Source of the DNA: Chrysomallon squamiferum | Taxonomy: Eukaryota > Animalia > Mollusca | Length of the DNA: 64,000 nt | NCBI GenBank assembly: GCA_012295275.1 | Contig: CM022673.1 | Location: 18,538,001 to 18,602,000 of the forward strand | Reading direction: 5' to 3' | Shown here: piece after piece, positions 970-60,248 of the stretch | Position numbering within the stretch: position 1 is the stretch's first letter | How the letters are laid out: the number at the start of each line of letters is the position of its first letter | Notes under the pieces: model-generated | What the model was told of the DNA's origin: nothing | The model's input: the letters and a program-made list of their open reading frames with translations, nothing else | Databases searched by the model: none | Translations under genes and position numbers: made by a program

Positions 970-1525
970 CTAGCAAATACGGCCATTGCAGCACTTGTTG
1001 AATGCTGCATCATAACTTCGTCGTCCACAACATGCAGGACGTATTCCACTTCTGGGGACAACGTTTCCCCCACAGCACATGTTGAATGTTGCATCATAAC
1101 CTCGTGTTCCACAACATGCAGGACGTAGTCCACTTTTGGAGACAATGTTTCCCCTGCAGCACATGCTGTATGTTGGACTGTAGCTTCTGTGGCCGCATAC
1201 AGCTGTATTTCAAAAATTAATATAATGACTTTTATATATTTTCATTACTATTATCTGCCTGACTCTCTATCAGTCTTATCTCTATATCAATATATATTAA
1301 ATATAGATCTATGCATTTACCTGATGCCTGTGTACGCGCACCTGTATATAAATCGCTAATATTAAAACAATTACCTGGAAGTGTTCAAAAGGCTGTGTGT
1401 TTGTGTAATCAAAGCTTTGTAAGAAAATTACCTTTTGAAAAAACCCAGGCTGATGCTCCCCTTGGCTGAATGCATGTGATTATTAATACAGCGACACAAA
1501 AAGCCAAAAGAGAAATATTCTGCAT
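970..1525 (-). CDS. Galaxin-like secreted Cys-rich peptide, copy A (2 repeats, 108 aa); coding exons 1432-1525 and 970-1202
   Basis: Exon 1525-1432 encodes MQNISLLAFCVAVLIITCIQPRGASAWVFSK (hydrophobic core, ASA cleavage motif) and ends in G|GTAATT. A phase-1 intron 1431-1203 ends in TTTTTGAAATACAG. Exon 1202-970 encodes (A)VCGHRSYSPTYSMCCRGNIVSKSGLRPACCGTRGYDATFNMCCGGNVVPRSGIRPACCGRRSYDAAFNKCCNGRIC*. Splice sites are conserved in the paralogues. Confidence 0.85.
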
Positions 1526-2312
1526 TTTCTTTTTTCTTTACTTTTTTTAAATGTCTGGAGAGAGAGAGAGAAAAAAAAAATGGCATTATTTCTGATATTA
1601 ATAAAACAATATACAATGTATATATAAATTAATATCTAAAATTATATAAATGCAGAAGCCCATAAAATTAAATAAATGCAGAAGCCCATCAAATTATATA
1701 AATGCAAAAGCCCATACATTATTTGCGATTGTAATATTATAATACTGTAATATTAATTTTAATAATAAAATATAACGAAAGATTAAATCAGAAACATCGA
1801 AGTCGGAAATAATAAAAACTGAAGAAACACCATTGTTGGCTATACACTTAAGTTTTAATTTATAATACTTTCCAAAGCCTATAATCTCTCTCTAATGGAT
1901 AATCCTACGTACTACTACTGCTACTAATAATAATACTAATACCACTACTACTACTAATAATAATGTAAAACACATTCATGCCATGTGACAGTTTGAGTTA
2001 ACGATGTAAGAAAATTGATAATATAATCGATTTATAAATGTTCTGTTGCTGAACTACACAAATTGGACAGTATTACTTATTACTAAACTGAATACCCTGT
2101 ATCTGTTATTACAGAGGTGGAGAATTCGATTGAACAGTTTATTGCTGTTAAAACAAAACCAATACAGTATTAACCAATCTAAAATAAAGAAAACTAACCA
2201 TCAAATAAATCTAAAATTTTAAATTTTGATATAATAAATCGATTAACAATTCTAAATAAAAACTTAGGTAATTTCTTTCAAAAGCAGTCGCAAATTATGC
2301 TAGCTTATGTCC

Positions 2313-2403
2313 TTTATATATTGTTCTGGGTTCCAAAATTTAACACATCTTAGTACAGTAACACTAATGGCCAATCGAAATTGTTTACCACTCCAATAGG
2401 CGG
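2313..2403 (-). promoter_or_regulatory. Putative core promoter of copy A (TATATAAA plus two CCAAT boxes)
   Basis: TATATAAA on minus at 2313-2320, CCAAT at 2371-2375 and CCAATAGGCGG at 2393-2403. The same arrangement occurs upstream of C, F and G. Confidence 0.6.
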
Positions 2404-4234
2404 AAAGATGTTGCACATCCATCTAAGGGATGAACAACATGAGCTGAAATGTCACTTAAGTGTATAGGCGCACCTATATGTTATTAAATATATCCAGCTA
2501 TATAGTTTTAATTGATATCGAATCACAAGTGTATATATTTTGTTTATATATTTTGTTAGTTTCGAGTATAATCCAAATGTATGTGTATTCAAAAATATAT
2601 TGTTTTATGTCTTCACACACACACACACACACACACACATCATATTCTGGTTACATTATCTCCCTCTAATTAAATCTGAAAGGTTTCTGACATAGTGGAA
2701 AGATAAATATTCACGATATATACATCTATGTTGTGTTTACTTGCCTAATAAAGAATATAAGATAACAAAGTTTATATATATTTTTTTTTTCTTCTTCTTC
2801 TTTTGAAAATTATTACTGTAATACAGGGGTTAATTTGCCATCTGAGGATTTTTCTGCATAATGTTCATAAAACTCAGACGTGAAATTATCTAAGTGGTTG
2901 GATAACAATAACAGATGCTGAACATATTCTGAATGCACAGCGTCCACTTGTAAAACTGTAAACAGTTTATATTATGTTTAACTGCAGGTTTTCTTACTGC
3001 CTGTAGAAAAATGTAAAATGTTTCAGTGATACATTCTTATCTAAAAATAACTGTATGCAAGTTAAAAGATATCCTCATAAATCACTCCAGATTTGCAAAC
3101 ATGGCTGACAAAGTCAAGGTGGTGGTCATTGAAGGCACATGTGTTTGTGTGTATATATATATATGTGTATGTATATATGAGTGTGTATGGTGTATGTATG
3201 TATTATGTACTGATGTATGTTTATTCTACATATGTAAGTACAAAAACAGATAGGTAGATACGTAGGTATTTATGTGTCTGTGGAAGGTGCATAATTTCAT
3301 CAAAAGAGAGTAAGACAGTTTGCTGGATTATTATTTTTTTAAATTAGACTGTTTTATTTTTAGAACCTGTTGTCCAGGTCTCTGTTCTGTTTTGAGCTAT
3401 ATTTGTCAGGTGGGTTCTTTCCCACAGACTTCCAGCTCATCCCTCCATCCTCCCGCTGTTGTTTTTCTAACTACATCATTTCACTTTGCATGTTTTCCAA
3501 GTGTTTATGTGTTGTTATAAATATAGAGTTTCAGTCGACCTGAGACTCATTGGATTAAATTAAATATTTGTTCATTCTTTTAATCATGAGTAAAGCACAA
3601 ACATGAACACTGTAACACTCGTGAACGTAAAGTATATTCCATTTGCTGACAGGTCTTTTTAAGTTTGAAAATAAATTGTGTGAAGATGAAGATGATGATA
3701 ATGATGAAGAATTATTTGTCAGTGTAAGTAATTGACACATCCTAGGATTATAACTGTAAACCTCAGACTATGCTTTAACAGAAAACCATCAGATGTTGCT
3801 GAAATTATAATAATAATAATAATCATAATAATAATAATAATAATAATAATATATAGATTAGTTATAAAACACTAAAAGACTTTTAGCTGGCATTGTTAAT
3901 ATTGTATTAGTTATTAATTTAACATTTCCAGGGCAATACCAAAGCAATGTTACTTATTGCATGCTCCTATTAATAATTTAAATACAGATAATCTCAAAAG
4001 TCAATAAAAATGTCAGTTTTAAAGACTCTATACTGTGTATTATAATAACAAATGAGAAACTGACATCTCTGATAAAACAATTTGGAGCTTAGGTAATTTA
4101 AAAACATACCAGCTACAGCCGCTCCGATTGTTTTACAGGACTCGAACAAGTAATGTCTGGACTGTCTCATAGCTGTGTGAAGTTCTGAGGAAATCCCTTC
4201 ACAGAAAGATGCTACAACACTCATACAAATTATT

Positions 4235-57900: not shown

Positions 57901-58450
57901 ACAAAAGAAAGATAAAATTCACCATTGTTTTTTTTTTCTTTTTCTTTTTTTTAACAGAGGCTTTATTTTTAAATTTAAAATACATAAATTTATATATAAA
58001 ATTTTTCGAAGTCTGTATTTCAATGTCTTTTAATACTTTAATATTATTAATTTTAATAATATTATTAATTTGGATAATAACCGGAAACATCATCGAAATA
58101 ATAAAAATTGAAGAAAAATATATTTTTAACAGAGGGTTTTAAATATTTAAAATACTTTTCAAAGTCAGACATAATTTCATCGAAAGATATATTTTAAATA
58201 TTTTTAACAGTTTTATTTTAGAAAAGTTAAATATTAAAGTTTGCTTTTGTTGCTGAATTTTTGCTGAAATATGTTTCAAATTCTAAGATTATTATCAGCT
58301 GTCTTTTTTCTTTATTAAAAATTCGAAACTTCAAATTAAAATAAGAACAGAATGTCAGAGTTAATCAAAGAAAAATTTGTATTTATTAATTATGTTAGTA
58401 TTCTTGTTACAGAACTGTGCTGCAAGTTTTGCATTCGTATTTGTTTTCTT

Positions 58451-59382
58451 CTAGCAAATGTGGCCATTGCAGCAGTTGTTGAATGCTGCGTCATAGCCTC
58501 GTGTTCCACAACATGCAGGACGTAGTCCACTTCTGGGGACAACGTTTCCCCCGCAGCACATGTTGAATTTTGCATCATAGCCTCGTGTTCCACAACATGC
58601 AGGACGTAGTCCACTTTTGGGGACAACGTTTCCCCGGCAGCACATGTTGAATGTTGCATCATAGCCTCGTGTTCCACAACATGCAGGACGTAGTCCACTT
58701 TTGGGGACAACGTTTCCCCCGCAGCACATGTTGAATGTTGGATCGTCCACTTTTGGAGACAACGTTTCCCCCGCAGCACATGTTGAATGTTGGATCGTAG
58801 CTTCTATGGCCGCATACAGCTGTATTTCAAAATTAAAATAATGACTTTTATATATTTTCATTACTATTATCTGCTTGACTCTCTATGAGCTGAACGGTGA
58901 CGTAAATGTGTAGCGCACCCATAACTTATTAAATATATCCAGCTATTTAGTTTCATTAATTGGTATCGAGTCAGAAGTGTAGATATTTTGTTTACATGTG
59001 CTAGTTTCGAGGATAATCCAAATGTATGTGTATTCAAAAACATATTCAGTTTTGTCTTCACACACACACACACACACACACACACACACATATAGAAACA
59101 CATACAATACATACATACATACATACATATATACACACACACATATATATATATTAAATATAGATCTATGCATTTGCCTGATGCATGTGTACACTCACCT
59201 GTACATAAATCGCTAATATTAAAACAATTACCTGGAAGTGTTCAAAAGGCTGTGTATTTGTGTAATCAAAGCTTTGTAAGAAAATTACCTTTTGAAAAAA
59301 CCCACGCCGATGCTCCCCTTGGCAGAATGCATGTGATTATTAATACAGCGACACAAAAAGCCAAAAGAGAAATATTCTGCAT
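58451..59382 (-). pseudogene. Galaxin-like copy G (3 repeats plus a 52-bp partial duplication causing a frameshift); exons 59289-59382 and 58451-58819
   Basis: The signal exon MQNISLLAFCVAVLIITCILPRGASAWVFSK is intact. The repeat exon is 369 nt (317+52). The tandem 52-mers start at 58693 and 58745. Normal splicing gives ..VSKSGRSNIQHVLRGKRCPQKWTTSCMLWNTRL*. Confidence 0.7.
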
Positions 59383-60162
59383 TTTATTATTTTTTTTGTT
59401 TGTTTGTTGTTCTTTTTTTATTAATCTGGAAAGAGAAAAAAAATTGCGTTATTTATAATTTTAATAAAACAATGTACGATACTTACATACATCTATATAT
59501 AAATTTATATATAAAATTATATAAATGCAGAAGCCCATAAAATATTTGCCAATGTAAACTTTTAATACATTAATATTATAACACTGTAATATTATTGATT
59601 TTAATGATAAAATATAACGAAAAAAGATTAAATCGGAAACATCGAAGTCGGAAATAATAAAAAATTGAAGAATGAAACACCATTGTTGGCTAACAGAGGG
59701 TTTTAAATTTATAATCTTTTCAAAGTCTGTATTCTCTCTCTAATGGATAATCCTCATAATAATAATAATAATAATAATAATAATAATAATAATAATAATA
59801 ATAAAAATAATAAAAGAATTTGAGAATAATGATGTAAGAAGTTTGGTAATATGAACATTTATAAATATTCTGTTGCTAAGCTAGGTAGATTGGACAGTAT
59901 TACTTACTTCCGACATGCATATCCTGGATCTGTTATTACAGAGCGGAGAATTCGATTGAATACTTTACTGATGTTAAAGCAAAACCAATACAGTATTAAC
60001 GAATCGAAAACAAAGGAAACTAATTCTTTCCACTTTTTGATAGATCATCAAATAAATCTAAAATTTTACATTTTGATATAAAAAAAACGATTAAGAATTC
60101 TAAATAAAAACTTACGCAATTTCTTTCCAAAGCACAGTAGCGAATTAGGCTAGCTTATGTCC

Positions 60163-60248
60163 TTTATATATTCATGTGGGGTCCAAAACACCTCATAGTA
60201 TAGTAATGGTAATAGCCAATGGAAATCTGTCTGCACTCCAATAGGCGG
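60163..60248 (-). promoter_or_regulatory. Putative core promoter of copy G
   Basis: TATATAAA at 60170-60163, CCAAT at 60216-60220, CCAATAGGCGG at 60238-60248, exon-1 donor GTAAGT at ~60110-60115. Confidence 0.6.

Follow-up and report, generated by a model that had tools for sequence, protein, structure and literature searches.

Small, probably secreted proteins built of galaxin repeats are encoded by a tandem gene array in the genome of the snail Chrysomallon squamiferum (GenBank assembly GCA_012295275.1, contig CM022673.1, positions 18,538,001 to 18,602,000). This 64-kb stretch is called the window below; all copy and unit counts refer to it, and positions are numbered from its first letter. 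The repeat exons belong to the galaxin family, and in one gene of the array, unit C, splicing of the signal-peptide exon to the repeat exon was observed in RNA. We consider it somewhat probable (roughly 55%) that these genes encode mantle-secreted, disulfide-locked, basic shell-matrix proteins.

Genes, products and transcription

By six-frame translation and self-BLAST, seven related units (A to G) were found between positions 970 and about 60,250, all on the minus strand, in agreement with the co-oriented array given in a preliminary description of this DNA. Both a signal exon and a repeat exon were kept in five of the seven (A, C, D, E and G), and in all five they were separated by a phase-1 GT..AG coding intron of 229–807 nt. 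The seven gene units of the preliminary description therefore stand as related units, and intact frames were found only in A, C and E. Units D and G were frameshifted, which could reflect assembly errors, and units B and F were remnants.

According to the spliced models, unit A encodes 108 aa with a mature peptide of 82 aa (12 Cys, net charge +10, isoelectric point (pI) 9.3), unit C 136 aa with a mature peptide of 110 aa (16 Cys, +9, pI 8.9), and unit E 108 aa with a mature peptide of 82 aa (12 Cys, +8, pI 9.0). These sizes, Cys counts and charges matched exactly those previously counted by hand, and the cationic character was thus borne out by computation. The cysteines of the mature peptides are laid out as C-(CC)n-C, as described before, with a repeat period of 28 aa, di-Cys spacings of 11 and 13 residues and a single Cys at either end. 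The mature start, earlier given as WVFSK, did not apply to unit E, where it reads LVFPK. The predicted signal peptide has a hydrophobic core (11-residue Kyte-Doolittle mean of 3.2–3.4) and Ala-Ser-Ala before the proposed cut; these sequence features support the suggested secretion.

Transcription was inspected in contigs of three RNA runs from one study (X1, X3 and X4) and of a further run (X2) whose contigs covered introns as DNA would; the mapped region was window 380–1510. Six contig pieces of run X1 fell on this region. In one of them, 118 nt long with a depth of 10.5, the coding intron was skipped exactly at the predicted GT-AG sites. The 27 letters around the joint showed no difference from C, two from G and three from A. 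The signal-exon part had four differences from A, a number that fits C or D, but not E (9) or G (3). An X1 contig from the 3′ flank of C also showed no difference from C at both of its loose ends. The splice between signal and repeat exons was thus seen for unit C, in one contig of one RNA run, and the gene model with two coding exons is supported by this splice and by the GT-AG intron of the five units. A 450-nt X1 contig was assigned to unit D, with which 14 of 14 checked variants agreed; because run X3 contains an intronic piece, this contig could be genomic DNA in the RNA library. A single short piece came from each of runs X3 and X4, one of them intronic and the other in the 3′ flank; neither was used as evidence. 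None of the six X1 pieces was 99% alike to A, and no A-, E- or G-specific contig was found in X1; such contigs show presence, not absence, and this is no proof of silence.

Unit C comprises an intact, spliced repeat exon of four repeat units (21,807–22,123), an RNA-joined, intact signal exon (coding part 22,931–23,024) and a probable 3′ untranslated region 420–570 nt past the stop (21,236–21,385), covered by an RNA contig of depth 2.2. The two 5′ non-coding exons of the earlier four-exon model are predicted from conservation: an alignment of six upstream blocks showed a conserved TATA box, two donors and one acceptor. In unit C the predicted exon 2 (23,274–23,337) has an AG acceptor and a GTAAGT donor, and the predicted short exon 1, with a GTGAG donor and an inferred start, lies together with the TATA box (about 23,535–23,542) at 23,487–23,542. 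Among the genes, C alone has all four upstream signals, the TATA box included, in canonical form; F keeps them without a gene body. In the aligned blocks of the other units, A (2040–2470) kept the TATA box and has CT and AT, not GT, at both predicted donors; D has an altered TATA box and first donor; in E the TATA box and predicted exon 1 are deleted; and G (59,870–60,310) kept the TATA box and donors and has an altered exon-2 acceptor. Within the window, the principal functional copy is probably C.

Galaxin family membership and known counterparts

All five repeat exons scored above the cut-off of 28 bits for Pfam PF24748 (Galaxin_repeat), with 66 bits for A, 88.5 for C, 33.1 for D, 65 for E and 80.4 for G (E-values from 6e-8 to 5e-25). 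The galaxin family assignment made from the letters alone was therefore confirmed. Matches to the IGFL family were weak (11–18 bits against a cut-off of 25), and this family was rejected. A search of 1.84 billion representatives returned 759 relatives at E up to 0.001, the nearest protein being Gigantopelta aegis XP_041366803.1 with 76% identity, the same C-terminus and a related signal peptide (9/25 identical). In the best 150 of the 759, with charge taken over the Cys region within rough boundaries, 46 relatives were short, with no more than 10 di-Cys motifs, and a net charge of at least +5 was seen in 29 of the 46; the longer 104 had a median charge of about zero. Twenty proteins were looked up; about half were unnamed, and the named short relatives came from Gigantopelta, Rhopilema, Sinanodonta, Mytilus and Solemya. 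Two jellyfish proteins, P0001 (EukProt, source name Galaxin) and P0022 (Rhopilema esculentum), are 64% and 62% identical to C. They share four repeat units, the C-terminal motif and the cationic character with C, but have a propeptide ending in basic residues and belong to hosts without a shell.

The array had been proposed as a new "mini-galaxin" family distinguished by size and charge. This novelty does not hold, since similarly short, cationic relatives occur in jellyfish, bivalves and the related vent snail, and the proposed type is already published as cysrichin, a shell matrix protein of Hyriopsis cumingii (PMC10045328). As described there, cysrichin is a protein of 163 aa and pI 8.15 in which five repeats follow a 26-aa signal peptide, and its expression is high in the mantle; nacre and prisms become rough when it is knocked down, and vaterite forms under the influence of a synthetic repeat. 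In the printed 38-aa piece, 24 of 33 residues are identical to the first repeat of A (hand count). In both systems a 26-aa signal peptide, in the snail a predicted one, is followed immediately by 28-aa di-Cys repeats with the consensus CG-Y-FSMCC-S-SGL-PA, and the pI is basic. The intact snail units differ from cysrichin in having three or four repeats, 108–136 aa and pI 8.9–9.3, and the snail genes form a multi-copy array with pseudogenes.

An expansion of this family in C. squamiferum has also been listed. According to Supplementary Data 1 of PMC7142155, galaxin family SFG_ortho1827 has 10 copies, compared with 0–5 in 15 other genomes (P 7.2e-11); exon structure, pseudogenes and charge are not given in the accessible passages. 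The C. squamiferum model CsqKR_Scaf50_34.15 contains a 28-aa repeat three times, as listed, which is letter-for-letter the repeat of unit G. In the main texts retrieved by our literature search, as far as these were accessible, no description of the array was found, and the word galaxin was absent from the papers on these snails among those listed; it is present in their supplements. The supplement entry is now tied to cysrichin and to the jellyfish relatives, and the array reveals no new kind of system.

Comparison with the galaxins EsGal1-10 of the squid Euprymna scolopes rests on published descriptions, not sequences (PMC12773714). These proteins likewise have tandem di-Cys repeats, form an expanded family and are expressed in epithelia; they are described with at most seven repeats and charges of +5 to +21.5, a range that includes the charges of A, C and E. 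Their expression is restricted to symbiotic organs; the published snail galaxin models, in contrast, reach high levels in mantle and low ones in the gland that houses the symbionts. The galaxins of the corals Galaxea and Acropora (PMC2726143) and the calcarins of sponges (PMC12419799), as reported, resemble the snail peptides in their repeats of about 30 aa with two di-Cys motifs and single flanking Cys, in a predicted β-hairpin disulfide ladder and in tandem duplication, and act in the skeletal matrix. Coral galaxin, however, has a mature form of about 295 aa, an acidic pI of 4.5 and a propeptide cleaved at dibasic sites (PMC2726143), while the snail peptides are one third of that size (82–110 aa), basic and without a propeptide. 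They are thus not coral galaxin in the strict sense.

The AlphaFold2 model of C, built from a 30-sequence alignment, had a pLDDT of 95.9 and was all-β, with 12 listed strands and no helix. In this predicted structure the strands fall at the di-Cys positions, and they coincide with the hairpin positions given for galaxin and calcarin (PMC12419799). A PDB sequence search with a 30-sequence profile gave no match at E up to 1, and Foldseek against the PDB gave none at E 0.001. The only row returned by VIA-align among 48,161 chains, zebrafish granulin (Z 2.9, root-mean-square deviation 3.5, 46 aligned residues), was too weak and was rejected. In the ESM Atlas, two galaxin-repeat clusters were the only ones found (0.82–0.83, below its reliable range). 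These searches gave no solved structural match, and they do not show a new fold.

Proposed shell matrix function and alternative roles

The published galaxin models Csqv2.0S_6546_26.1 and 26.3 were linked to the window by a synteny chain, in which Scaf50_34 lies near 6546_25-26 in the listed models, and by the repeat of unit G; the link is to the window, with no identifier mapped to a unit. In the shell mass spectrometry (MS) table of the scleritome paper supplement, 26.1 and 26.3 are listed for three and two of five shells, respectively, and a G. aegis galaxin for three of three. The expression sheet that lists both models, titled "scale matrix proteins", gives 401 (26.1) and 1221 (26.3) transcripts per million (TPM) in mantle, 211 and 132 in scale epithelium, 23 and 2 in gill, 18 and 3 in foot, and 1.1 and 8.3 in the oesophageal (symbiont) gland. 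Scaffolds 577 and 578 carry five further C. squamiferum models that fall into one group with this G. aegis galaxin; as tabulated, four of the five peak in mantle (5–205 TPM) and one is low everywhere. Both sets of models point to the mantle. A shell or sclerite matrix role had been named earlier as the fallback to a defence function; with related models in the shell proteome and high in mantle, a shell matrix role is now the better-supported option, and a galaxin reported from Crepidula shell agrees with it.

Models 26.1 and 26.3 are classed as species-specific (phylostratum 12) in Supplementary Data 25 of PMC11871041; because family members have jellyfish relatives of 62–64% identity, this suggests that the label is wrong. 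Their unannotated neighbour Csqv2.0S_6546_26.0, with 743 TPM in gill and 497 TPM in foot according to the supplement of PMC11871041, may be another galaxin copy.

As shell-matrix proteins, the peptides might work as follows. The 26-aa signal peptide would direct secretion. The predicted chain of C folds into eight short hairpins, each with its di-Cys on the first strand, and with a lone Cys at each end all 12 or 16 cysteines could pair within the chain. The resulting rigid, positively charged strut may bind acidic matrix proteins, sulfated glycans or carbonate surfaces, and may shape crystal edges. Because there are almost no acidic residues (2–3 Asp plus Glu per protein), the action would presumably not proceed via calcium binding. 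Coral galaxin does not bind calcium either, as stated in PMC2726143 citing Fukuda. Copies would be gained and lost through tandem duplication, and repeat number would vary as internal 84-nt units are added or dropped.

Substitutions among A, C and E were evaluated by a simple counting method, with C taken without one internal unit (76/104 codons); the counts are small. In the signal peptide, 7 silent and 7 replacement changes were found (pN/pS 0.32). In the mature region there were 7 silent and 29 replacement changes, and the pN/pS of 1.34 did not demonstrate positive selection in these three units (P 0.64 versus neutral). The contrast between mature region and signal peptide gave P 0.04. None of the 29 replacements hit a cysteine (P 0.004), and the pN/pS of the non-Cys positions was 1.6. 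Such a mature region would suit defence peptides that diversify, or copies under relaxed constraint.

Several points weigh against a shell-matrix function. The main one, directed at a purely structural role, is that purifying selection was not seen outside the cysteines, which would be more typical of defence peptides or of decay than of a structural protein. The published gene identifiers are unmapped to units, and the exact repeat match belongs to the broken unit G. The scores of the shell MS matches of 26.1 and 26.3 are low (2.6–17.7, as tabulated), and since lysozymes, macin, hemocyanin and myoglobin share the same shell list, presence in the shell may be due to trapping. The jellyfish carrying the 62–64% identical relatives are shell-less, a galaxin is reported to be specific to the body wall in Riftia, and the control in the cysrichin RNA interference experiment, as described, was buffer only (PMC10045328).

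The chief alternative, less likely than not, is surface defence: the peptides would be cationic, disulfide-stabilised antimicrobials of mantle and scale epithelia, would hold bacteria in check along the growing edge of shell and scales, and would enter the shell as passengers. A net charge of +8 to +10 in 82–110 aa, the birth-and-death array, and the combination of a conserved signal peptide, invariant cysteines and fast non-Cys change would suit such peptides, as would close relatives in non-calcifying jellyfish and the lysozymes and macin of the shell list. Synthetic single repeats of EsGal1 and EsGal2 inhibit bacteria (PMC12773714, Table 1), and a mussel gill galaxin is reported to respond to Vibrio. 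Expression in the scale epithelium is high, and the word galaxin was not found among the sclerite MS table rows listed. However, antimicrobial action of this subfamily is argued by analogy, and the squid peptides, as described, act at 50–300 µM and as isolated repeats (PMC12773714). The pN/pS is not significantly above 1, and in the published table 26.1 and 26.3 have low values in gill and foot, where exposure is greatest. Moreover, the closest tested relative, cysrichin, has shell phenotypes, and a basic pI is reported from pearl-oyster matrix proteins too. The two roles are not mutually exclusive.

Control of endosymbionts in the oesophageal gland, as EsGal1 acts on Vibrio in the squid light organ, was among the functions proposed in the preliminary description and appears very unlikely. 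The host snail is endosymbiotic, the 10 squid galaxins are described as specific to symbiotic organs (PMC12773714), which by analogy would favour such a role, and for one of the five grouped models the tabulated gland value is as high as 26 TPM. Against it, the published models, whose relation to the units is inferred, show 1–8 TPM in the gland versus 400–1221 TPM in the mantle, with 26.1 and 26.3 lying 150- to 350-fold below their mantle values. The genes listed as gland-high include 34.11 and 34.12, the neighbours of CsqKR_Scaf50_34.15, but not this model itself. Rather unlikely, too, is a largely neutral expansion, in which C works, the other copies arose by unequal crossing-over in repeat-rich DNA and are decaying, and copy number has no adaptive meaning. 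It would account for the four broken units of seven, for the upstream defects of A (both donors) and E (TATA box and exon 1), for X1 contigs that trace to C and D with none 99% alike to A, and for a mature-region pN/pS near 1. But A, C and E have lost none of their cysteines, their signal peptide is under constraint, and the published sheet shows high expression, with differing tissue profiles, for two or more galaxin models; in addition, RNA contigs show presence and not absence, and the D and G frameshifts could lie in the assembly. A shell-matrix function thus remains our preferred reading.

Galaxins have two unreconciled reputations, as skeletal matrix in corals, sponges and mussels and as antimicrobials in squid. 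The snail genes are among the smallest natural full-length galaxins in this comparison, and because they are so small and full-length, matrix and defence roles could be tested on one folded protein, a natural one of 82 aa, not on isolated repeats. A wider and speculative possibility, to which we give rather little credence, is that short cationic galaxins are ancient, unrecognised surface antimicrobials of animals, from jellyfish to snails, and that shell galaxins were recruited from them or sealed in. If so, a subfamily with 60% or more identity would span jellyfish to snails, cysrichin would be a defence peptide, and the array would diversify its non-cysteine surface to police bacteria of mantle, scale epithelium and perhaps gill, the link to the gill being the gill- and foot-high neighbour listed in the supplement.

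Copy turnover and other features of the window

The window is AT-rich (GC 0.24–0.35) with many microsatellites. The features of the array described here, like those of C, lie on the minus strand. Unit A has an intact repeat exon of three repeat units (970–1202, with the stop codon at 970–972) and an intact signal exon (coding part 1432–1525) in its spliced model. Unit B is a remnant of the last repeat-exon codons and 3′ flank (11,127–11,914), for which tblastn and blastn found no signal exon; its upstream flank (12,678–17,775) is akin by self-BLAST to those of C, E and F. The repeat exon of unit D (28,072–28,220) has two repeat units, with the first Cys lost and one gained, and its 3′ end is present in the RNA-library contig; its signal exon (28,456–28,548) has 93 nt instead of 94, and the frame stops after 13 codons. 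Unit E has intact repeat (37,950–38,182, three units) and signal (38,486–38,579) exons. Unit F (45,538–46,215) keeps a promoter block and a signal exon broken by a frameshift and a stop, and no repeat exon was found by self-BLAST and alignment. In unit G the signal exon is open (coding part 59,289–59,382), and the repeat exon (58,451–58,819) is 32 nt short of five units and frameshifted past the first, with a stop after 84 codons; its last three units are those matching the published model. The 3′ flank of G (57,150–57,773) contains a partial second copy of the sequence adjoining the stop.

With three units intact and four broken, the birth-and-death turnover suggested for the family was supported. 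The five units have 2, 3, 3, 4 and 5 repeats. Across A, C, E and G, internal repeat units differ at 0–4 of 48 nt, first units at 6–8 of 48 nt and last units at 3–11, and the two internal units of C are identical over the 48 nt compared. Because first and last units group by position, repeat number likely changes through the internal 84-nt units by unequal crossing-over. The flanks of the units differ by about 6–23%. Two classes of upstream flank were observed, one at 2640–7770, 30,345–37,460 and 60,714–63,660 (units A, D and G), and the other at 12,678–17,775, 23,900–26,700, 39,290–42,650 and 46,470–51,240 (units B, C, E and F). This suggests duplication in at least two rounds. Variants in contigs of run X2 differ from every unit of the window by 3–9 letters in 22–30, and one variant contig had a depth of 310, compared with about 47 for the contig nearest A, although depths are not copy numbers; these variants and depths hint at near-identical further copies outside the window.

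The coding intron of G carries a copy of about 270 nt of its own upstream flank (58,885–59,155 versus 60,284–60,559, 89% identity). A match to Rfam mir-2238 at 22,240–22,327 was barely above threshold and lies on a TC/GA microsatellite palindrome in the intron of C; it is likely an artefact. Between units A and B, broken reading frames at 7810–8897 on the minus strand read like a DNA transposase, by their motifs of the hAT/Buster type. Pfam gave a sub-threshold DUF4371 match only (E 0.045) for these frames. Large inverted copies were found at 3594–4033 and 17,979–18,423 (88% over 451 nt) and at 52,697–53,622 and 55,495–56,469 (71% over 1015 nt), which are probably dispersed elements.

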